64,000 bases of DNA. Source: Mobula hypostoma. Lineage: Eukaryota. The stretch is taken from NCBI RefSeq assembly GCF_963921235.1, contig NC_086108.1, positions 72,108,001 through 72,172,000 of the forward strand, written 5' to 3'. The notes below the pieces were generated by a model that was given only the letters and a program-made list of their open reading frames with translations, was not told where the DNA came from and did no database searches. The translations under genes were made by a program, and so were the position numbers. Positions 620 to 59,067 of this stretch are shown in pieces; the stretch's first letter is position 1; each line of letters begins with the position of its first letter.

Positions 620-3600
620 GCACCCCACTTAAATTAGAAACAAACTAAGATCCGTTCTCCTGGGCTCCCATCTTTTTCTTGTAATTAGATTTATGTTTTG
701 GAGTTACAAAACACAACAGTGACAACAAGGGATTTTTAAAATAACCTGAGATGTCCACCTATCTATTGAAGCACAATGAGATGTTTGAGTTTTTAAAAAT
801 GCAGCAAAACGGCTAAATAAAAAAAGCAGCGCCTCACGTGTTCCTTCAGAAAAAGAGACAGAAATGATTAAGTTTTTAAAAGGCAGAAGTGGACTAAATT
901 CACAGGTTAATAAACATTGAGTACTGGCTGATAATAATCATAAAAAAAGAGCAGAAATAGCTGGTTACATCAGAAAGACTGATGAATTTGATTACACAAT
1001 AGATAACTGGATATTATATATGAAGTGGATTGAACAGTATTTTAAAGCCAGTGAAATAGCCAATGTGAAACAAATATCAGTTTTGCAGAGTGCATTGGGT
1101 ATAAAAGCATACAGTTCTCTTCAAAGTTAAACTGCTCCAACCAAACCAACCAAAATGAGGTTTGCTGATGAGCTTTGCTGAAATTGTGAAAGTAATGCAG
1201 GAGTATTTAGAACTGAAACCATTATTGTTTGGAGAACACTTTAGATTTGATAAGTGGAATCATAACTAAGGGGAGTCCATTTCAGTGTATGGGACTGAAT
1301 TAAAGAGATTGGCTGAGCTTTGCCAGTTCAGTAAAGGGCTTAATGATGAACTAGGAGATCATTTAGTTCTGGAATCTTACAATAAATCATTCAAAAATGG
1401 CTCCTAACTGAAGCACAACTTACATTTAAATGACAACAGCAGAAAGAAATGCAATTGAATTGCAGTCAGGAATGAACAAAATTGCAACATCTGGATGGAG
1501 GTCTGGCTGGCTGAACCAATTGTGTTACCATTTTGGCAAGGGCTCACATATACCAGACCAATGCAGGTTTACTTGCAGAAAATGAAACAAAGTAGGACAC
1601 GTATAAAGATCTTATCAGACGGACAAAAATAAATGGACTGCAAAGGGAAGAGAAAAGGCTAAAAAGTCAAAATGCAGTTTCAAAAGAGCACTAATCTGCA
1701 CGCTGTTGATGAAATATCTGATAATGATGAGAGTGGCTCATAACTGGGTAGCCTTGAGAATGACAAAGTGAAAACTAACACTAGACAAGCAATATATTTT
1801 ATACCAGAAGTGAATGGTAAATTAATAAAAAAAGGAATAGGACACAGGCTTGGCTGTTTCAGTCATTCCACAAAATGAGTTTTAATGGCATTTCAAAGAT
1901 ACTGAACTGATGCCTGCAGATATTCAACTAAGTACTTCTACTGGAAAAAAGATAACTCCTGTAGGAATGACATCTATAAAAGCAAAATGCAACAAACAAC
2001 GTCACGTTGGGTTTGTAAGTGGTAAAAATAGGAGGGCCAGCATTGTTGGGATGTGATTGGCTGAGACAATTACTACTTGATTGGAGATCTATCCACAATT
2101 TGCAAGCCCCATCCCCTGTAACAGAGTCAACTGAGAGCAAATTAAGAAAGGTACTGGATGATGTCAAAGCAGTGTTCAAGCTTGTATTGAAAAACTCAAA
2201 GATATCAAGGATAAAATCGTGTTAAATGAAAATGCCACACCCAGGCTTTGCAAAGCCCTTCCAGTTCCTTATACCAACTGTGATAAAGCAGCTAGTGACC
2301 TAGATTGCATGGATGCTGAAAGAATTCTTACCAAGGTTCAGTGGAGCCCATGGACAATGCCACTGGTCCCGGTAGCCAAGTCACCATGATCACCATGTTA
2401 AAAGATTTTAAGATTTTAAGGTCACCATCAATCTAGTACTGAAAGTAGAGTAATACCCTCTGCTCAAGATAAAGGGTATCTTTACAAAGCTTCCTGGAGG
2501 AAAACACTTCAGCAAAGTGGGCTTAGCTGAGGCTTACCTACAGATGGAGATAGAAGAAGAGTCCAAAGTGTTTTTCACAAAGGGATTTAACACTATAATG
2601 GGCTCATTTTTGGAGTAGAATCTGCACCTGTGCTCTGGCAGAAAGCTATGGACCAGGTGTTGCAAGGCTGTCAGTGTTGCGTGGATGACATCTTTGTTAC
2701 CAGTAAGGATGATAAGGAAAATTGCCAAAATCTTTGGGCAGTGTTAAAAAGATTAGAAGATTATGGGCTCAAAGCATGATGCAACAAGTGTGAATTCTTT
2801 AAACCGAGCATCGCTTGCTGTGGTCACACCATTGACGCGCAAGATTTACATAGGTGTGCTGAGAAATTTCAGGTAGTGGTGGATGCCCCAAAGCCACAGG
2901 ATGTGTCACAGTTGTGGTTCTTTTTAGAAATTCGTCATTTACTATAACAGGTTCCTGCCAAGCTTGGCAATGGTGCTCCACTGCTTGAACTCTTTATAAC
3001 AGATCAGCAAGAAATGACAATGGACAAAACAATATGAGTTGGCTTTCCAAAAGGTAAACGAAATGATGATGTCAGACACTGTACTCACACATTGTGATCC
3101 ATATCATCTAGTGAAGCTTGCCTGTAAGACCTTGACCTATAGAATAAGTGCCGTCATGTCTCACATGTTATGAGAGATGGAAGTAAATGCCCCACAGCCT
3201 TTGCATCACATTCTCTTACCACTGCAGAGAAAACTAACGCACAGATCAACAGAGATGCCTTGAGTGTGCTTTGGGTGTGAAATGTTTCAACAAGTACTTC
3301 TATGGGAGAGATTTTATCCTCATTACCGATCTTCGACTACTAGTGTCCATTTTAATCCACGAAAGAGTGTCCCACTAACAGCAGCAGCACAAACGCAGAG
3401 ATGGGCTCTGTTTCTTGGAGGACACAATTACAGGACTGAATTCAAGAGGACGACTAATTATGGAAATTCTGATGGATTGTCCTGTTTGTCCTTAGAAAAG
3501 GAAATAAACGGAAAAAGATTACAAAACAAAAAGCACACTGTTTTGGATGTATTCTTGGTAACGCAAATCGGCAGAGATGACCCAAAGAGAAACCAGAAAG

Positions 3601-4100
3601 GATCCCACCTTGTCTCAGGTCTACACAGTAACCCAAAATGGCTGGAATATGCAGCAGAAACTTCAGTTCCCCTATTTTTACAGGTGCTGGGATGAACTTG
3701 CCCTTGATGGAAGTTGCCTTATGTGGGGATTGAGAGCTGTTGTACCATCCAAGCTGAGACCCAAAGTTTTGGAGGAGCTACATGCTGGTCATCTATATGT
3801 GGTTAAAATGAAAGCATTGGCTCGAAGCTTTGTCTGTTGGCTTGGGATAGATCAGCAGATTGAGCAGCTTGCCATGTACTGTTTGGGATGCCAACAGTAC
3901 ATTCAGAAGATACCAAGAAGACTACCTCCTGTCCCTGGGAATGGCCTGCGTTTCCCCAGCAGAGGATTCATTTAAGTTTTGCCGGACCACTCATGGGCAC
4001 AAGTTTCTTGGCAGTAGTGGATGCAGCTCCAAAATGGCCAGTAGTGTTCCCAATAGCCTCCGCTACAGCCTCGCACACTGCTGATGCGTTGAGAAGCCTC
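620..4100 (+). mobile_element. Degraded Ty3/Gypsy LTR retrotransposon internal region (gag-PR-RT-RNaseH-IN), 3'-truncated in integrase
   Basis: Gag-like region at about 955-1750 with a zinc-knuckle remnant (CYHFGKGSHIPDQC). Protease DTGLAVSVIP at about 1841 and LLGCDWL at about 2043. RT FGVESAPVLWQKAMDQVLQG and CVDDI at about 2680. RNase H AFASHSLTTAEK. Integrase zinc finger LHAGHL...CLGCQQ and core WEWP...RIHLSFAGP...VVDA. Order PR-RT-RH-IN. Many stops and frameshifts. A possible 5' LTR remnant lies at about 620-720. Confidence 0.9.
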
Positions 4101-4393: not shown

Positions 4394-6227
4394 GTTTAGA
4401 ATGATTAAAAAAGTTTTTAAAAATATCAAAAATAAACTGACCTCAACATATTGTGATTTTGCACTATCCTGGACAGATGGTAATAGATGGTTTTCAATGG
4501 CAGTTCCTACAAACCCTCACCCCTATCTATAACCCCTCCCTGCTCACTTTAGTTAGCTTCACAAGATTTTTCTGAATACCAGGTATTGACTAAAGGCAGA
4601 CTGGTTCTCAGATGGAGAACATCTTTCTCCTCTGGACTTTTCCTGCCCAGCATCACTTGGCCTGGTCCAGCCCAGCCTAATCTTGCTCAGATCACTTCAG
4701 GATACTCATCCTGTCCTGAGGTAGAGTGGGGATGCCGAGGCCTGGCGGTTTCTGGATGATTCAGAGAAAGGAGGAGCCAGCTGAACAAACCAATTAGGCG
4801 AGAAGGAAGCAGTTTAGACTCCAACGCATTCAGCTACAATAGAGATTTAACCATGTTTCAGCTGGTTAGACTGTTTATAGCCCACACACCTCAGCTTCTC
4901 TGCTGCACTCAATATCTGCAAAATTTGAGCTGCAGCTGGAGGGATGAGGCGAAAGAATATAGTATGTTATGCTGCTGTGCTACAGTGGCATTGCAACACA
5001 ATTTTTAGTTTAATTAATTCTCAGCATAATACAGAAATGGCAAGTGACAGAACAGTTCTAACTGAACCCAAGTTCGCTGGAGACCATTCTGACAGAAAGG
5101 TTGGGCCAAACGTGGGGAGGAATGTCAGCCCCAACATGTGTCACCTCTACAGTCTGAGCTTTCTGAGACTTTTCTTATCACAGCTGATTTAGAATATAGT
5201 TCGTGTTTATTGAATAAAATGGGGAGATAACATGAAACTTGCCTGCCTAAAGTTGGTGACAGGCGTCATATTGTTTCTCCTTTATACCTTTTTACTCAAT
5301 TTATTTATAGACTTATGTAAGAGATGCAGAAATTGAGTGCTGGTGTATCTGTTATGTTGAACTCTGCCATTTCCAGCAACAGATTGCTTTTAGTATTTTT
5401 GTTATCTATTCTGAGTTATAAATAGGGATCTCTATTCGTATAGTCACAAGTGTACTGTTTGCACCATCGTACTGCATTAGTCAATAGAGCAGTATATTCA
5501 TCAAAGAAAACACATATATCACTCAGTAACACATGATCTTGTAATCAGAAAATAAATGCATAAGCATAAATCTTAAAATGCTATTAAGAAACAAAAGCTC
5601 AGAGAACAAAAAGGTGTAACAATCTGAATATTTTTAGTATTATTAAAGGTTGGATAGGAAAACTGGAAAAGGTGGAGAGAGAATAACTTTTATTTCTGGT
5701 TAAATAACAATGAACTTTCTTTTAGCAGAGTACTTAATGCCAACTCACTTTTTATGTTGTCATAATGAATGTCAGGGGAAGCCTGAGGGGCTGAGGAGCC
5801 AATTTGTGTCCCTACTAGTATGTGTTCTGGTGCCCACTCTAGTTTTGCAATCCACTGGATGAAAAGAAAGGCTGAAAGCTGAGTTGAGAGGTGGATTGGC
5901 AGACTTGCCACATCAAAGAGCATGATAGGAACCAGGAACAACTTTGCATATTCGCCGAGAGCTTGGAGTGATGAATTTCAGAAGGACAGCATGGGGTTAA
6001 GTCAGCTTTGCTCACTCCTGTCATGATCTGCCTTCCCTGCATGTTTGTAGTGGGAGTTGATATTGAGAATATATTTGCACATGCAGTGTGGCTGAGCAAG
6101 CAGATTCTAAGCATTGTTCAATTGAGAAACAGAAGTTGTAGGAAATTGTTAGTAATCAAGGGGCAGGTGACAAATAAATACATTTTATGGTGATTTGGAA
6201 GTGTGGTGATTTGTGAAAAATGAACAC

Positions 6228-15150: not shown

Positions 15151-15414
15151 CGGATTGGTCGCGAACACGATAAGAAACATCCTCTCCGTTTCCAATGGGC
15201 TTTCAACATTTAATAGGTTTCAGAGATTCTTTCTCATTTTTCTGAACTCCAGAGTGTACAGGCCCAGGGCCATCAAACGCTCCTCAAAACTTTTCATTCC
15301 TAGGATCATTCTAGACTCTGGACCCTCTCCAATACCAGCACATCCTTTCTTAGAGAAGGTGCCCAAAATTGCTCACAACACCTCAAATGCGGTCTGACTG
15401 ATGCCTTACAGGGC

Positions 15415-15531
15415 AAAACAAGGGTCTTAGCCTGAAACATTGACTGATTGTTTATTTTCATAGATACTGCCTGACCAGCATTTTGTGTTTTGTCCTGGAT
15501 CTCTAGCATCTGCAGATTTTCTCGTGTTTGT
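15415..15531 (+). mobile_element. Penelope-like terminal-repeat fragment inserted in CR1 (half hammerhead)
   Basis: agggtcttagcctgaaacattgactg...catagatactgcctgaccagcattttgtg...agcatctgcagattttctcgtgttt; the CUGANGA half is missing. Confidence 0.7.
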
Positions 15532-16029
15532 GGCTCAGCATTACATTTTTGCCTTTGTATTCCAAGTCCTCTTGAAATGAATTCAAACGTTGCATTTGCC
15601 TTCCTTGCCACTGACTCAACCTGCACAAGGAGTCCCATGTCCTTTTGCACCTCTGATTTCAGAATTTGCTCCCCATTTAGAATGTAGTCTATGGTTTTTT
15701 TTTCTACCAAAGTGCATGGTCATATACTTTCCTACACTATATTCCGATTTCCAATTCTTTACTCATTCTCCTAATCTGTCTAAATCCTTCTAAAGACTCC
15801 CTACTTCCTCAACACAATCTGCCCCTCCACCTATATTTGTATCATCCAGAAATTGGTCATAAAGCTATCAATTCTTCAATTCTGTCATCTGAGTCATTGA
15901 CATATAACATGAAGAGGAACAATCCTGACACGAACCTCTGCATAACACCACTAATCACCGACAGGCAAATGAAATAGACCACCTTTATTCCCACTCTTTG
16001 CCTTTTGCCAATCAACCAATCTTCTATTC

Positions 16030-16168
16030 ACAAACAACAGGAATTCTGCAGATGCTGGAAATTCAAGCAACATACATCAAAGTTGCTGGTGAACGCAGCA
16101 GGCCAAGCAGCATCTATAGGAAGAGGCGCAGTCGACGTTTCAGGCCGAGACCCTTCGTCAGGACTAAC
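16030..16168 (-). mobile_element. Penelope-like terminal repeat (solo end) inserted in CR1
   Basis: aacaggaattctgcagatgctggaaattcaagcaac...gcagcaggccaagcagcatctatagg...cagtcgacgtttcaggccgagacccttcgtcaggact; CpG-rich, which suggests a young copy. Confidence 0.8.
16130..16165 (-). ncRNA. Minimal type I hammerhead ribozyme motif (Penelope-associated)
   Basis: Minus strand reads AGUC-CUGACGA-AGG(GUCUCGG)CCU-GAA-AC-GU-C-GACU. Stem I is AGUC/GACU, the CUGANGA and GAAA core boxes are intact, stem II is AGG/CCU, stem III is the palindrome ACGU, and the cleavage triplet is GUC. Confidence 0.8.
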
Positions 16169-17334
16169 TTTATACCGTGGGCACATTTGCCTTGTTCAGT
16201 AGTCTCATGTGCGGCACTTGTCAAAAGCTTTCTAAAAATCCAAGTAAGCAGCATCTACTGACTTTCCTTTGACTATCCTGCCTGTAGTTTCCTCAAAGAA
16301 CTCCAACAGACTTGTCAGGTAAGATTTCCCCTTAAGGAAACCATGCTGACCTTGGTCTATTTTATCATGTGCCTCCAGTACCCGGAAACCACATCCTTAT
16401 AATGGACTCCAACATCTTACTAACTACTGAAGTTAGGCTCATTGGCCTATACTTTCTATTTTTGCCTCCCTCCCTTCTTAAAAAGTTGAGTGATATCTGC
16501 AATTTCCCAGTTCTCTAGAACCTTTCTAGTACCTAGTGATTCTTGATAGACCACTACTAATACTGTACGTCCACAATCTCTTCAATTACCTTTCAAAACT
16601 TTGGGGTGTAGTCCATCTGATCCTGGTGACTTATCTACCTTCAAGCCTTCCTAAGCACTTTCTCCTTAGTAACAGCAGCTACACTCACTCCTGTCAACTG
16701 GCACTCGAATTTCTGGCATATTACTGGTGTAATTCACAGTGAAGACTGATACAAAATACTTCTTGAGATTGTTGGCCATTTCTTTATCCTTAATTACTAC
16801 TTTTCCAAAATAATTTTTCAGCTTGTTTATGTTCGCTCATCTATTTGTTATATTTTAATATTCCTCATGTGCAAATCTGTTTAGATAACAATTACAAATG
16901 TAATAAGATTATAATCAGATAATTAGAAACATAAATTGAAAACTGCTTTCTAGAAAAGCCGGTAAGGCTGTCAATTGGGAATGTTGGTTCTGGTAAGATG
17001 GTGGTGCTTTCAATTGCAATGGCTTCTATGGGTTCAATAATAGGTGTTACTGTCCATTTTAAACGTATTTTTCATGAATGCAAGATCCTGCGAGACATTA
17101 AAGATTTACAGTCTGCCCATCAGCGAGCTGCTCATTGGTAGAAAAATTGAAGGAGCTGGACTTGGTGCAGTTTGTGCTGCTGCTTGCATTGGAGAGGCTT
17201 TGGAAGAGCTGGTATGCAAAGAAGGTATGCAGTCTGATAGCAAGTGACCGTTGTAGTCATTTTTCTTGTGATTGCAAGACCCTGTTTGGACTTTGTTAAT
17301 GTGGAATGCTGCAATTCTGATTCACTGATTTATT

Positions 17335-19357: not shown

Positions 19358-21250
19358 AAGAGTTCAAGTTCAAGGTTAATTGTCATTCAACCATACACTT
19401 AAATACAACCAAAGGAAACAGCTCTCCTCTGGGGCGAAGGTGCAAAACACAGAACTAATAGGTCATACACAGCACACAGCACATATAATTAGGATAGCAA
19501 AAAAACATACAGTTACAAAAAAATAATAATATAGCACAAGTCCCTGAGTGTCATGGCCTGTAGGTTTATGTGCATGGATATTGTTCTGTAGCCGCATCTC
19601 TGCAGAAAAAAAACCCGTAACAGTTCCTCATGTCGCTCTGTACAGTCACAGATGAAAGCAATCCACCTTGTTTCCCACCGTGCAAACACTGGAAGGCAGA
19701 ATTGACGGGAGGGACCAGCGTGGATTCCAAAAGCACACAGGCAGATCCGGCTACAACAGGCAGCCCTGAGGAATGATCTGTGCCGCAACTGAAGCCATGC
19801 AGCTCCCTGGCTGTTGGTCCTGTGAATCGAACTCACAGTATTCTACATTATCAGTGTCCAACGGGGTCTCGTGATCGCAACAACATCTAAGAACACCAGC
19901 TGCATCGTTCATTGGATTGCACCGTGTCTAATGTCTTCATTCCTCGGTGGCTGAAGCAGGATGCAGCACAATGCACAGCAAGTCCAGCTCCACCACTGTT
20001 TACTAGCAACACACACAAAGTCATAGAGGAACTCAGCAGGCCAGGCAGCATCAGTGGAAAAAAGTACAGTTGACGATTCGGGCCGAAACCCTTCAGCAGG
20101 ACTGAAGAAAAAAAGACGAGTAGAATTAAAAGGTGGAGATGGAAAATAAATATCATCAACAAGCGCACCTTTCCTGCCCCCCCCCCCAACTTTCTGCTTT
20201 CTGCAGGGATCGATCCCTATGTGACTCCCTTGTCCATTCATCCCTCTCCACTGATCTCCCTCCTGGTACATAGCCTTACAAGCGGAACAAGTGCTACACC
20301 TGTCCCTACACCTCCTCCCTCACTACCATCCAGGGCCCTAAACAGTCCTTCTAGGTGAGGTGACACTTCACCCGTGAGTCTGTTGGAATCATCTACTGCG
20401 TCCTCCAGTGTGGCCTCCTGTATATCGGTGAGACCCGACGCAGGTTGGGAGACCGCTTCACCAAACACCTACACCCCGTCTGCCAGAATAAGCGGGATCT
20501 CCCAGTTGCCACCCATTTTAGAATCTCCCAGTGGCCACCCATTTTAATTCCACTTCCCGTTCCCATTCCGACATGTTTATCCATGGCCTCCTCTACTGGC
20601 ACGATGAAGCCACACCCAGCTTAGAGGAACAACACCTTATATTCCGTCTGGGTAGCCTCCTACCAGATGGCATGAACACCGATTTCTTGAAGTTCCGGTA
20701 ATGTTCCACCCCTTTCTTCCCAATTCCCCATCCCCTTTTCCCTCTTTCACCTTATCTCCTCACATGCCCATGACCATCTGTCCTCTCCTATTATATTCCC
20801 CCTTCTTCTTGCGCCCTGTATCTCTCTCACCACTCAACTTCCCAGCTCTTTATTTCACCCTCCCCCCCCACCCCCGGTTTCACCTATCACATTCTGTTAC
20901 TCCCTCTCCTCCCCTCACCTTTCAAATCTACTCCTCATCTTTTTTTCTCTAGTGCTGCTGAAGGATTTTGGCCCCAAACATCAACTGTACTCTTTTCCAT
21001 AGATGCTGCCCGGCCTGCTGAGTTCCTCCAGCATTTTGGGTGTGTTGTTTGGATTTCCAGCATCTGCAGATTGTCTCTTGCTGGTGATTAGATCACTATT
21101 TACTAACCCACTAGTGGGTTACTCCTGTGGTAGCTGATGTTCCTGATAACCAGCAGTATCTTGCGATTGTGAAAAAGGTGCAAAGGATGAACAATTACAA
21201 CTTTGGACCAAAAAAGACCTCTGCATCTGAGTGCACCATTATTTTATTGG
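19358..21250 (-). mobile_element. Non-autonomous Rex1-tailed retroelement split by a Penelope insertion
   Basis: Tail gagttcaagttcaaggttaattgtcattcaacc at about 19360. The body continues to 20005 and resumes at 21094; the 5' end is near 21240. Confidence 0.6.
20006..21093 (+). mobile_element. Penelope-like element (GIY-YIG endonuclease C-terminus) with inverted terminal repeat and 12-bp TSD
   Basis: Plus strand translates as ...GIIYC.LQCGLLYIGETRRRLGDRFTKHL...DLPVATHF.NSTSRSHSDM...LEEQHLIFRLGSLLPDGMN. The 3' repeat at about 20900-21090 is mirrored in inverted orientation at 20006-20145. Flanks cactgtttacta (19994-20005) and cactatttacta (21094-21105). Confidence 0.9.
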
Positions 21251-21424
21251 AAATTGGAGTATGAGGCCACATTCAGTTCGGAGGAGCAACACCTTATATT
21301 CCGTTTGGGTAGCCTCCAACCAGATGGAATGAACATCAATTTCTCGAACTTTCGGTCATGGCCCCCTTCCTTTTGCTGACCATTCCCAATACCCTCTCTC
21401 ACCTTATCTCTTTACTTGCCCATC

Positions 21425-43362: not shown

Positions 43363-43736
43363 TATTTGAAGGGGATTTAATGCTATGAAAATAGATTGGT
43401 GTGTGTTTTTGAATGGACAGGCCATAAGTCTATACTTGGATACCTAGAAATAACAATTGAACTTTTAGCAAATATGCCTCTTGCAAATACACTATTTGGT
43501 CAAAATAGATGGCCTATATCATCTGGCTATAAAAGTGCCTATAATACTTTACTTTATTGTCGCCAAACAATTGATACTAGAGCGTACAATCATCACAACG
43601 ATATCTGATTCTGCGCTTCGCGCTTTCTGGAGTACAAATCAAAGGTAAATATTAAAAACTTAAATTATAAAACCTAAATAGAAAATAGAAAAGGGAAAGT
43701 AAGGTAGTGCAAGAAAACTGAGAGGTAGGTCCGGAT

Positions 43737-46571
43737 TGTTATTAATGATTATGATATAGTTGGGATCACAGAGACATGGCTCCAGGGTGACCAGGGATGG
43801 GAGCTCAACGTTCAGGGATATTCAATATTCAGGAGGGATAGACATGAAGGAAGGGGAGGTGGGGTGGCGTTGCTGGTTAAAAAAGAGATTAACGCAATCG
43901 AAAGGAAGGACATAAGCCGGGAAGATGTGGAATCGATATGGGTAGAGCTGCGTAACACTAAGGGGCAGAAGACGCTGGTGGGAGTTGTGTACAGGCCACC
44001 TAACAGTAGTAGTGAGGTCGGAGATGGTATTAAACAGGAAATTAGAAATGTGTGCAATAAAGGAACAGCAGTTATAATGGGTGACTTCAATCTACATGTA
44101 GACTGGGTGAACCAAATTGGTAAAGGTGCTGAGGAAGAGGATTTCTTGGAATGTATGCGGGATGGTTTTTTGAACCAACATGTCGAGGAACCAACTAGAG
44201 AGCAGGCTATTCTGGACTGGGTTTTGAGCAATGAGGAAGGGTTAATTAGCGATCTTGTCGTGAGAGGCCCCTTGGGTAAGAGTGACCATAATATGGTGGA
44301 ATTCTTCATTAAGATGGAGAGTGACATAGTTAATTCAGAAACAAAGGTTCTGAACTTAAAGAGGGGTAACTTTGAAGGTATGAGACGTGAATTAGCTAAG
44401 ATAGACTGGCAAATGACACTTAAAGGATTGACGGTGGATACGCAATGGCAAGCATTTAAAGGTTGCATGGATGAACTACAACAATTGTTCATTCCAGTTT
44501 GGCAAAAGAATAAATCAAGGAAGGTAGTGCACCCGTGGCTGACAAGAGAAATTAGGGATAGTATCAATTCCAAAGAAGTAGCATACAAATTAGCCAGAGA
44601 AAGTGGCTCACCTGAGGACTGGGAGAAATTCAGAGTTCAGCAGAGGAGGACAAAGGGCTTAATTAGGAAGGGGAAAAAAGATTATGAGAGAAAACTGGCA
44701 GAGAACATAAAAACGGACTGTAAAAGCTTTTATAGATATGTAAAAGGGAAAAGACTGATAAAGACAAATGTAGGTCCCCTGCAGACAGAAACAGGTGAAT
44801 TGATTATGGGGAGCAAGGACATGGCAGACCAATTGAATAATTACTTTGGTTCTGTCTTCACTAAGGAGGACATAAATAATCTTCCAGAAATAGTAAGGGA
44901 CAGAGGGTCCAGTGAGATGGAGGAACTGAGTGAAATACATGTTAGTAGGGAAGTGGTGTTAGGTAAATTGAAGGTATTGAAGGCAGATAAATCCCCAGGG
45001 CCAGATGGTCTGCATCCTAGAGTGCTTAAGGAGGTAGCCCAAGAAATAGTGGATGCATTAGTGATAATTTTTCAAAACTCGTTAGATTCTGGACTAGTTC
45101 CTGAGGATTGGAGGGTGGCTAATGTAACCCCACTTTTTAAAAAAGGAGGGAGAGAGAAACCGGGGAATTATAGGCCGGTTAGCCTAATGTCGGTGGTGGG
45201 GAAACTGCTGGAGTCAGTTATCAAGGATGTGATAACAGCACATTTGGAAAGCAGTGAAATGATCGGACAAAGTCAGCATGGATTTGTGAAATGAAAATCA
45301 TGTCTGACGAATCTCATAGAATTTTTTGAGGATGTAACTAGTAGAGTGGATAGGGGAGAACCAGTGGATGTGGTATATTTGGATTTTCAAAAGGCTTTTG
45401 ACAAGGTCCCACACAGGAGATTAGTGTGCAAACTTAAAGCACACGGTATTGGGGGTAAGGTATTGGTGTGGGTGGAGAATTGGTTAGCAGACAGGAAGCA
45501 AAGAGTGGGAATAAACGGGACCTTTTCAGAATGGCAGGCGGTGACTAGTGGGGTACCGCAAGGCTCAGTGCTGGGACCCCAGTTGTTTACAATATATATT
45601 AATGACTTGGATGAGGGAATTAAATGCAGCATCTCCAAGTTTGCGGATGACACGAAGCTGGGTGGCAGTGTTAGCAGTGAGGAGGATGCTAAGAGGATGC
45701 AGGGTGACTTGGATAGGTTGGGTGAGTGGGCAAACTCATGGCAGATGCAATTTAATGTGGATAAATGTGAAGTTATCCACTTTGGTGGCAAAAATAGGAA
45801 AACAGATTATTATCTGAATGGTGGCCGATTAGGAAAAGGGGAGGTGCAACGAGACCTGGGTGTCATTATACACCAGTCATTGAAAGTGGGCATGCAGGTA
45901 CAGCAGGCGGTGAAAAAGGCGAATGGTATGCTGGCATTTATAGCGAGAGGATTCGAGTACAGGAGCAGGGAGGTACTACTGCAGTTGTACAAGGCCTTGG
46001 TGAGACCACACCTGGAGTATTGTGTGCAGTTTTGGTCCCCTAATCTGAGGAAAGACATCTTTGCCATAGAGGGAGTACAAAGAAGGTTCACCAGATTGAT
46101 TCCTGGGATGGCAGGTCTTTCATATGAAGAAAGACTGGATGAACTGGGCTTGTACTCGTTGGAATTTAGAAGATTGAGGGGGGATCTGATTGAAACGTAT
46201 AAGATCCTAAAGGGATTGGACAGGCTAGATGCGGGAAGATTGTTCCCGATGTTGGGGAGGTCCAGAACGAGGGGTCACAGTTTGAGGATAGAGGGGAAGC
46301 CTTTTAGGACCGAGATTAGGAAAAACTTCTTCACACAGAGAGTGGTGAATCTGTGGAATTCTCTGCCACAGCAAACTGTTGAGGCCAGTTCATTGGCTAT
46401 GTTTAAGAGGGAGTTAGATATGGCCCTTGTGGCTACAGGGGTCAGGGGGTATGGAGGGAAGGCTGGGTTCTGAGTTGGATGATCAGCCATGATCATAATA
46501 AATGGCGGTGCAGGCTCGAAGGGCCAAATGGCCTACTCCTGCACCTATTTTCTATGTTTCTATGTTTCTAT
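43737..46571 (+). mobile_element. Young CR1 LINE, nearly complete ORF2 and 3' UTR with a (TTTCTATG)n tail
   Basis: APE endonuclease (ITETWL, VYRPP, MGDFN, SDHN) and RT (KSPGPDG, NYRPVSL, DFQKAFD, PQGSVLGP, FADD); tail tttctatgtttctatgtttcta. Confidence 0.97.
43738..46473 (+). pseudogene. CR1 ORF2 endonuclease-reverse transcriptase, 5'-truncated, one in-frame stop (TGA 45292-45294)
   Basis: ORFs 43864-45294 and 45346-46473 are in the same frame, which is also open back to 43738. The stop replaces the G of HGFVKGKSC. Confidence 0.93.
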
Positions 46572-52599: not shown

Positions 52600-52823
52600 G
52601 CAAAATGCAAACAAAATGCTCAGCAGGTCAGGCTGGGTCCTCCAACATTTGGGGCTGAGACCCATCCTGATGAAGGATAATGATGATGGCTCCTGCTGAA
52701 GACTCTCAGCCTGAAACTTTGACTGTACTCTTTTCCACAGATGCTGCCTGGGCTGCCGAGTTCCTCCAGCATTTTGTGTGTGTTTCCTTGGATTTCCAGC
52801 AACTACAGAATATCCTGTGTTTA
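52600..52823. mobile_element. Short Penelope-derived fold-back element with hammerhead remnants
   Basis: Left arm aaaatgctcagcaggtcaggc...ggggctgagaccc, then cctgatgaagg and cctgctgaagactctcagcctgaaactttgactg, then the full right terminal repeat. Confidence 0.7.
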
Positions 52824-57620: not shown

Positions 57621-59067
57621 AAGAAGACGGAAGGGGAAGGGAAAAAATTTTACCGGAAGGCGAAATTGATATTCATGCCCTCAGGTTGGAGGCTACCCAG
57701 ACGGATTATGAGATGTTGCTTTGCCACCTTGAGAGTGGCCTCATCATGGTACAAGAGGAGGCCATGGACTGCCATGTCGGAATGGGAATGGGAATCGGAA
57801 TTAAAATGGCTGGCCACTGGGAAATTCTGCTTTTGGCAGAAGGAATGGAGGAGCTTGACAAAGCGTCCCACAGTTGACAACAGGTCTCAGCAATGTAGAG
57901 AAGGATGCATCGGGAGCACTGGATTCAATAGACGACCCTAACAGAATTGCAGGTGAAGTGTTGCCTCACCCAGAAGGACTGCTTGGGGTCCTGAATGGTG
58001 GTGAGGTAGGAAGTGAGTGGGCAGGTGTGGCACTTAGCCAGGAGGGTGATTAGTGGGGAGGGACGAATGGACGTGAATCACAGAGAGGACGATCCCTGCA
58101 GAAAGCAGAGAGTAGGGGAAGGTAAAGATGTGTTTGGTGGGATGATCCCTTTGGAGGTTACGGAAGTTGTGGAGAATGATGTGTTGAATACAGAGGCTCA
58201 TCAGGAGGTAGGTTAGGAAAAGAAGAATTCTATCTCTGTTAAGGCAGTGGGAAGATGGGATGACTTTTATGTGTGATTGCATTAAAAAGTGCTGACTGTG
58301 GGCAGAATCCTCCAAGTTTCCATCAGTTTGTTTCAGCATTAGATGATCAGTTGATAGACAAAGAAACGTGCAGTATGCAGTGGCTAGGGTCTGTCCTCAC
58401 CATTCACTTCCACAGACATTCCTTGAACTGTCTGACTGAAATTCGTTTTACATCGATTTAGTTAAAATGTGGGGTTATTCAGAAGTATGCTTTGCCAAAT
58501 GCTGTCACAATATAAATAAGACCCAGTGCAACAAAGCGTTTGATGACATTAACCTGTCTTCATCAGAAGTGTAAGTATATTACTTTTTAGAACTGCATGG
58601 GGTTATTATTTGCATAATGATCACTGACAGGATTTAGAAGTCTACAGTCTTGGCTGAGATGCTTTAGCAGAGTAGGTGGCCTAAACTCCAACAGAATAAA
58701 AATACTTATTTGTATTAATGTGATGTTGAATGACAGTGGTGCCAAAGCCCCTTTTATTTAATCAAATCAGCATGTGGCTGCCAGATCTAGGTCACCATCA
58801 ATTCCCAAACATGTAAGTGAATTAATTCTCAATGCCACATTGAAAATTACCAATTTTGTTGTAACTAATTTTTTTAAAAAGCATTTAACATAAATTAATC
58901 TCTGAAGAGACATTATTAACAGCAAGTAACATTGGTTTAAAAAACAGCAGTACTCTAGATTATTTTCTTGTAAGTCCTTCTAATCCATTTGTTTTTCACC
59001 ATATGCATACATTATACTTGGCATTGCTGAAGGACTGAATTTTAAAAACAGGTTTTAGATATGTATA

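Follow-up and report, generated by a model that had tools for sequence, protein, structure and literature searches.

The motif at positions 16130 to 16165 on the minus strand of the window (the whole 64-kb stretch of DNA that was analyzed) is very probably the minimal type I hammerhead of a Penelope-like element (PLE), lying in its terminal repeat (pLTR). The element is young and very abundant, is likely of the Neptune clade, and has left at this place a solo end of 139 bp within an older LINE. Folding predictions for the motif alone give an inactive rod, and the motif likely cuts no RNA at this locus. Coordinates of all features are given in Table 1.

The hammerhead motif and its parent element

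The minus-strand letters at 16130 to 16165 are exactly those quoted in an earlier note on this DNA, with all core nucleotides present. The type I descriptor scan proposed in that note, run in a strict form (CUGANGA, stem II, GAAA, UH, stem I), gives one match on the two strands of the window, which starts at 16161 on the minus strand and is this motif. Applied to a 1-Mb genome sample (100 evenly spaced 10-kb stretches of five large contigs), the descriptor gives 19 matches, all of them from the same PLE family, and 0 matches in the reversed sequence. The exact 36-mer has 32,886 matches genome-wide (16,386 + 16,500), which is a density of ~1 per 106 kb in this 3.48-Gb genome, and its reversed control has 0. 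The folding z-score of the 46-mer (-0.07), the 0 matches to Rfam at gathering thresholds in the 64-kb window, and the absence of covariation among the copies are consistent with a chance match to the hammerhead consensus. However, based on the descriptor and 36-mer matches and the empty reversed controls, we conclude that the motif is real; moreover, it sits in a pLTR, where PLE hammerheads are described, it is retained across old subfamilies, and it has all four of the extra features given in the available text of PMC4209133 except the G-C pair. A chance match is thus hardly conceivable.

With the PLE minimal hammerheads described in the available text of PMC4209133, the motif shares the CUGANGA/GAAA core (including G12-A14, A15.1-U16.1, and H17), an open-ended, short helix I of 4 to 5 bp (pair probabilities of 0.91 to 0.98), a palindromic 15.2-16.2 segment without a loop or a stable helix III, an unpaired nucleotide between 9 and 10.1, a location in the pLTR of a PLE, and copies that are mostly dispersed singly, with some close opposite-strand pairs. 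This supports the earlier assignment to the minimal type I hammerheads of PLE terminal repeats, which are proposed to act as dimers, and the loopless palindromic stem III is likewise borne out by the sequence and the descriptor. The 4-bp stem I stands as to its four pairs, but a fifth pair, U.G, is possible (probability, 0.55). In contrast with the published motifs, the youngest subfamilies here have G10.1.U11.1 rather than G10.1-C11.1 (a pair that is typical but lies outside the published descriptor, and that is replaced by G.U in this copy and its subfamily), and helix II is short (4 pairs). There are also 32,886 identical copies here, compared with the heterogeneous motifs given in the available text of PMC4209133 (~4,000 in coelacanth and 9,000 in Xenopus).

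Table 1. Features of the solo element end and its hammerhead motif (window positions)
Feature	Position	Strand	Basis
Decayed LINE RT region, same orientation, hosting the fragment	15223..16378	-	tblastn
Solo 3' end (pLTR + tail) of a young PLE; unit 3375-3513 of the 3513-nt L031 unit	16031..16169	-	138/139 bases identical (99.3%)
Optional tail between the two preferred 3' ends (unit ~3475 and ~3512); holds the first codons of the reading frame	16031..16069	-	3'-end counts
Minimal type I hammerhead motif	16130..16165	-	Sequence, descriptor, 36-mer count, fold
Stem I, 5' strand; partner strand 16130-16133; possible U.G pair 16166/16129	16162..16165	-	Sequence and fold
Core C3-A9; N7 is C in young subfamilies, mostly U in old ones	16155..16161	-	Sequence and sampled copies
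Unpaired A between A9 and G10.1; known trait of PLE minimal hammerheads (PMC4209133, available text)	16154..16154	-	Fold, copies
Stem-loop II, predicted G.U, G-C, G-C, U.G and a 4-nt loop; position 11.1 is U (16142)	16142..16153	-	Fold, copies
Core G12-A14 and loopless 4-nt palindrome (15.1, 15.2, 16.2, 16.1); stem III only between two molecules	16135..16141	-	Sequence
Predicted cleavage site, 3' of C17 (16134)	16133..16134	-	Inferred from hammerhead numbering

The solo Penelope end recognized in the earlier note is confirmed, as the 139-bp fragment matches the 3' end of the unit of L031, a full-length parent element (G000:C2:18155000-18164600). In this unit the ribozyme occupies positions 3379 to 3414, and the predicted cut falls after 3410. 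L031 is made up of an inverted 5' piece, a 5'-truncated upstream copy that ends in a pLTR (4421-4559), the ORF, and a second pLTR, and it carries two hammerhead motifs 3.5 kb apart on one strand. Its open frame is 1043 codons long from stop to stop, and the protein has DKG at residue 447, YIDD at 689, a C-x4-C-x2-C linker at 910, and VIY-YIG at 947 to 962. Judged by these motifs, L031 has a single ORF with RT plus a GIY-YIG domain at the C terminus; the Pfam matches to RVT_1 (E value, 5.8e-5) and GIY-YIG (E value, 0.008) are both below curated cut-offs. Near-identical copies run 5' into a frame with RT and GIY-YIG motifs.

A single ORF of this kind, pLTRs from partial tandems, inverted 5' pieces, and an optional tail of 30 to 40 bp are all features of EN+ PLEs such as Neptune in the available text of PMC8557442, and the optional tail is also known from that of PMC3846280. 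A C-x(2-5)-C-x-x-C linker between RT and EN, which L031 has at residue 910, marks Neptune and Nematis PLEs (PMC8557442, available text), and of these two only Neptune is reported from vertebrates in the available text of bioRxiv 10.64898/2026.07.22.740005. By its linker, the parent element is likely a member of the Neptune clade; the window holds only the last 139 bases of the element.

The LINE that hosts the fragment is one that we take to be CR1-like, and the host species is a cartilaginous fish. Of 19 empty homologous sites, 13 hold 15 to 17 bases that are absent at this locus, which indicates an insertion with a target loss of ~15 bases and without a target-site duplication. Elsewhere, two copies (L149, at G000:C1:1875537-1878563, and L326) continue past the pLTR into the body of the element, at least as far as unit position 3654, and this requires a template with a pLTR upstream of the ORF. 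The 1-Mb sample holds 237 remnants of the family of all ages, which by scaling would give several hundred thousand genome-wide. Two older, decayed PLE relatives also lie in the window, at 20000-21355 and at 57659-58264. Both retain pieces that code for endonuclease (protein identities to L031 of 76% and 45%, respectively), and the first carries an inverted 5' end piece. On the plus strand, 43729-46470 is a young LINE whose APE-type endonuclease and RT occupy two open frames, with a single stop between them, and whose protein is 94% identical to that of a copy in L032; 21592-22269 is an open frame with a Pfam match to ALKBH8_N, a domain that is often found on LINE tails.

Predicted folding and the cutting of host RNA

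In ViennaRNA predictions, the 38-nt motif alone folds into an inactive rod of -11.0 kcal/mol with a buried core, in which G5-G8 pair with 15.2-C17 at probabilities of 0.98 to 0.99, and the same local fold is obtained within 206 nt of context. The 3-bp stem II described in the earlier note is not favored: its A-U register has a pair probability of 0.02, compared with 0.87 to 0.97 for the register in which an unpaired A (16154) precedes G10.1. The first stem II pair is standard in 100 of 120 scored copies (out of 122 sampled) in the G register and in only 57 of the 120 in the A register. The known PLE register, an unpaired A followed by G10.1, is the most likely one for stem II. In the available text of PMC4209133, the unpaired nucleotide of PLE minimal hammerheads is accompanied by a highly conserved G10.1-C11.1 pair. 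The double hammerhead is predicted at -11.5 kcal/mol compared with -22.0 kcal/mol for two monomers, and that of the C11.1 form at -16.7 kcal/mol compared with -25.8 kcal/mol, all of which are nearest-neighbor energies that leave out Mg2+, tertiary contacts, and protein.

The earlier note had also suggested that this copy may be competent and could cut minus-strand transcripts that cross it, given a partner copy. Our results do not support this, since it is one of tens of thousands of identical copies, its 10.1-11.1 pair is noncanonical, its core is predicted to be buried, and it has no intact partner on its strand in the window. The window holds 14 remnants of the family, of which only the one at 16130-16165 is intact by the descriptor; there is no intact same-strand partner within the 64 kb, and the nearest same-strand relative (20000-20115) is altered at A6 and A15.1. 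According to the available text of PMC4209133, a single PLE minimal motif shows no detectable cleavage, and according to that of PMC11167929, the ribozyme of an anole PLE cleaved only with PLE protein added and ribozyme mutants left insertion unaffected. In four presumed RNA runs kept as contigs, which cannot show RNA ends, there are many copies of the family, and no match among those listed bridges the junctions of this locus. Cutting of host RNA at 16130-16165 is very unlikely.

Solo copies, including this one, might instead cut host transcripts in trans, if two RNAs, or an RNA and a PLE ribonucleoprotein, formed a double hammerhead that cleaves after C17. All core bases are present, the 32,886 identical copies could supply partners, the anole PLE ribozyme is active when PLE protein is present (PMC11167929, available text), and dimer cleavage is described (PMC4209133, available text; review, PMC6765202). 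However, the dimer is predicted to be ~10 kcal/mol uphill, the 10.1-11.1 pair is noncanonical in either register (G.U, or A-U in the other), and the activity of dimers and trimers, engineered dimers included, is low in the available text of PMC4209133. In addition, no anole RNA-seq reads ended at the site (PMC11167929, available text), and genome-wide the forward and reverse counts, which refer to contig strand, are equal. For these reasons, we consider cutting in trans quite improbable. Were solo copies to cut host RNA with PLE protein, long transcripts would carry a real burden, at ~1 intact site per 100 kb, but our data give no sign of this.

Position 11.1 and the history of the copies

We sampled 122 copies that cover the motif, with the four window copies left out, and 19 of them are still intact. 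Position 11.1 is T in 25 of 27 copies at ≥92% identity and C in 11 of 15 copies at 86 to 92% identity, and in the 80 older copies it has the mixed pattern of a decaying CpG. The presence of T in the youngest class and C in the next indicates that a C-to-T change at a CpG went to fixation in the youngest masters; older subfamilies carry G10.1-C11.1, and the young subfamily lacks that CpG. The description of this copy as CpG-intact is correct with respect to its own subfamily, which it matches at 138 of 139 bases (L031), but not with respect to the ancestral motif, which had C at 11.1. Exact 36-mers number 32,886 for the U11.1 form and 4,891 for the C11.1 form, which is a U/C ratio of 7:1 that is not a measure of success, because exact-match counts favor young copies. 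Core position 6 is C in a number of older copies, namely those at 20000-20115, 20939-21080, and 52691-52821 in the window and others at several loci of the 1-Mb sample (10 of 78 old sampled copies), and these possibly go back to a former subfamily with an A6C variant.

One tentative reading of this history is that in the youngest subfamilies the ribozyme has been weakened or can be dispensed with and that the motif is kept mainly as a protein-binding or boundary structure; the C-to-U change at 11.1 would have become fixed in the master without stopping the element from reaching tens of thousands of copies. A G10.1.U11.1 pair probably lowers the cleavage rate. The distribution of T and C between the two youngest classes and the 36-mer counts of the two forms are consistent with this reading, and so are several published observations, each from the available text of its source: the high conservation of G10.1-C11.1 among PLE hammerheads (PMC4209133), in vitro insertion that was unaffected by ribozyme mutants (PMC11167929), and the spread of Naiad PLEs without canonical hammerheads (PMC8557442). 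However, G.U still pairs, U11.1 opens a second register without the extra A, and all other core bases are kept. A weakened ribozyme in the youngest subfamilies and an inert solo copy, which is the best explanation for this locus, are compatible with each other.

The check for covariation across genomic copies that was suggested in the earlier note gives no excess over shuffles, with 0 to 3 two-sided compensatory changes per pair of helices I and II among the 122 copies. This null result carries little weight, because the copies decay neutrally from a few near-invariant masters, in which case such a result is expected. In old copies, the non-CpG columns of the ribozyme have a uniformity of 0.86, compared with 0.56 for the 5' flank and 0.69 for the 3' linker, although pairwise alignment to one reference inflates such values. 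The uniformity of the ribozyme columns is as expected if the masters were selected to keep the motif. The 31 columns downstream (unit 3429-3459) have a uniformity of 0.87, which matches that of the ribozyme, and thus the conservation of columns could partly reflect protein binding instead of catalysis.

Insertion ends and the RNA template

Just 3' of the cut site, two 27-mers of the young subfamily match 12,821 and 6,622 times. Both ends were mapped for 107 arms, whose 100 loci come, in sequence order, from the initial 16 Mb of a single contig; any match lying less than 300 bases from a locus edge was discarded, and the design takes no copies that start 3' of 3415. These arms consist of 55 arms of inverted insertions (the pairs of which are not independent), 38 non-inverted truncated copies, and 14 that are long or censored. 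The 3' ends form two classes, at unit 3464 to 3486 (60 of 107 arms) and at unit 3505 to 3523 (46 of 107), and the window copy, which has the tail, belongs to the distal class. Poseidon of Anolis carolinensis (PAc), in the available text of PMC11167929, has two RT start sites that match these classes, and its two 3' end classes are likewise ~37 nt apart. PAc is also similar in that its reading frame starts inside the pLTR, the hammerhead lies in the pLTR, and there is no sign of cut RNA as the main template. It differs in that it belongs to another clade and its ORF starts at stem II, whereas the first ATG here is ~55 nt 3' of the ribozyme.

A pile-up of 5' ends is seen at the 5' edge of the ribozyme, where 49 of the 107 young arms start in a 31-nt zone (unit 3360 to 3390). 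For all arms, the rate of 5' ends per 1000 nt at risk is 22.6 in this zone, compared with 4.0 in 3391-3415 and 0.7 to 2.8 upstream, and for non-inverted copies the corresponding values are 14.7, 2.4, and 0.3 to 1.2. Per base, young-copy 5' ends are 6 times as frequent in the zone as in the 3' part of the ribozyme and at least 10 times as frequent as further upstream. Among the matches listed in open-access text, we noted no report of such a pile-up or of a cut-site count. The commonest start is unit 3380 (7 arms of 107). A single fixed start at an initiator-like hexamer, the A of which is unit 3375 and the start of this copy, is not supported, as only 2 of the 107 arms start there. Solo starts shift with the 3' end class (medians of 3381 versus 3369; n = 14 versus 8; p = 0.016), and with a zone that is 30 nt wide and shifts in this way, the data do not define a single start point. 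Two causes of the pile-up are conceivable, an RNA start in the pLTR or fold-back of cDNA on the hairpin. Penelope has an internal promoter that starts in its pLTR, according to the available text of PMC2377424.

Many inverted junctions fall on short palindromes of the motif. At unit 3408, 29 of 30 junctions are inversions, most of them perfect palindromes centered on a 6-nt palindrome that spans the cut site, and similar palindromes center on unit 3398 to 3403. The palindromic junctions suggest cDNA fold-back or pairing on the ribozyme's own symmetry. Many cut-site junctions are preceded by 3 to 4 purines complementary to unit 3420 to 3423, and these perhaps arose by snap-back copying.

An apparent spike of insertions exactly at the cut site (unit 3411) was gone once matched G-starting controls at 3417 and 3398 were added. 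There are 51 matches that start at 3411, 40 at 3417, and 74 at 3398, and among the first 30 classified at each, 11, 9, and 8, respectively, are solo; at 3408, 1 of 30 is solo, and at 3414, 3 of the 15 classified. Scaled genome-wide, solo counts are 19.7 (3398), 1.5 (3408), 18.7 (3411), 3.0 (3414), and 12.0 (3417), where the positions vary slightly in filter and pattern length and the search at 3417 took in a few older copies. These genome-wide single-position counts show no excess of starts at the cut site relative to the matched controls. The contribution of the cut site to solo starts is not large; a small one may exist, since the counts at 3408 and 3414 are far below that at the cut site. 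Taking our filter to pass roughly a third of random flanks, we estimate that starts at the cut site make up <1% of the ~19,400-copy pool, which indicates that templates are mostly uncut.

From its ends, the solo copy would be a product of target-primed reverse transcription that began at the distal of two start sites on uncut RNA, with the cDNA ending 4 nt beyond stem I. By analogy with related elements, the two motifs of the parent element would join by way of the 4-nt palindrome, probably assisted by the element's protein, and process the element's own RNA. We put forward, as possible rather than probable, the wider proposal that uncut RNA is the integration template of this PLE, the short copies of which are non-random truncations: reverse transcription would start at the tail of the 5' pLTR and run off at the RNA 5' end just upstream of the hammerhead, which would mark the RNA start and would not cut the RNA out at integration, and the newest subfamilies (>30,000 copies, U11.1) would have a weakened ribozyme.

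The fragment could alternatively belong to a non-autonomous retrozyme or a SINE-like family that replicates as short units or circles. Short copies are indeed many, 17 of the 38 non-inverted truncated copies have a target-site duplication of ≥7 bases, and a pLTR origin has been proposed for retrozymes (bioRxiv 10.64898/2026.07.22.740005, available text); non-LTR retrozymes (PMC7229834 and the available text of the same preprint) also share with the motif a type I hammerhead and a link to PLE pLTRs. However, retrozymes are tandem repeats with mostly canonical hammerheads and circular RNAs, whereas the copy here is a dispersed single end with a minimal motif, which is not the canonical retrozyme type (PMC7229834). 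Retrozymes have a complete hammerhead in at least two consecutive units, and what we find is a single copy inside a LINE remnant, with no tandem arrays in the 64-kb window. Furthermore, short copies grade into long ones at 95 to 99% identity, up to the full element, their 5' ends cover a range of 30 nt, and inverted insertions, which are typical of PLEs, account for 55 of 107 arms. A retrozyme or SINE-like origin is highly improbable, and the solo end of a PLE remains our interpretation of the fragment.

The motif is of a common and already described kind, and this locus matters little on its own. The function of PLE hammerheads is called unclear in the available text of PMC8557442, and the family found here is a useful test bed for their role, as it offers a young element with an open frame, two natural forms of the ribozyme that differ at a single conserved position, and insertion ends that can be counted by the tens of thousands.
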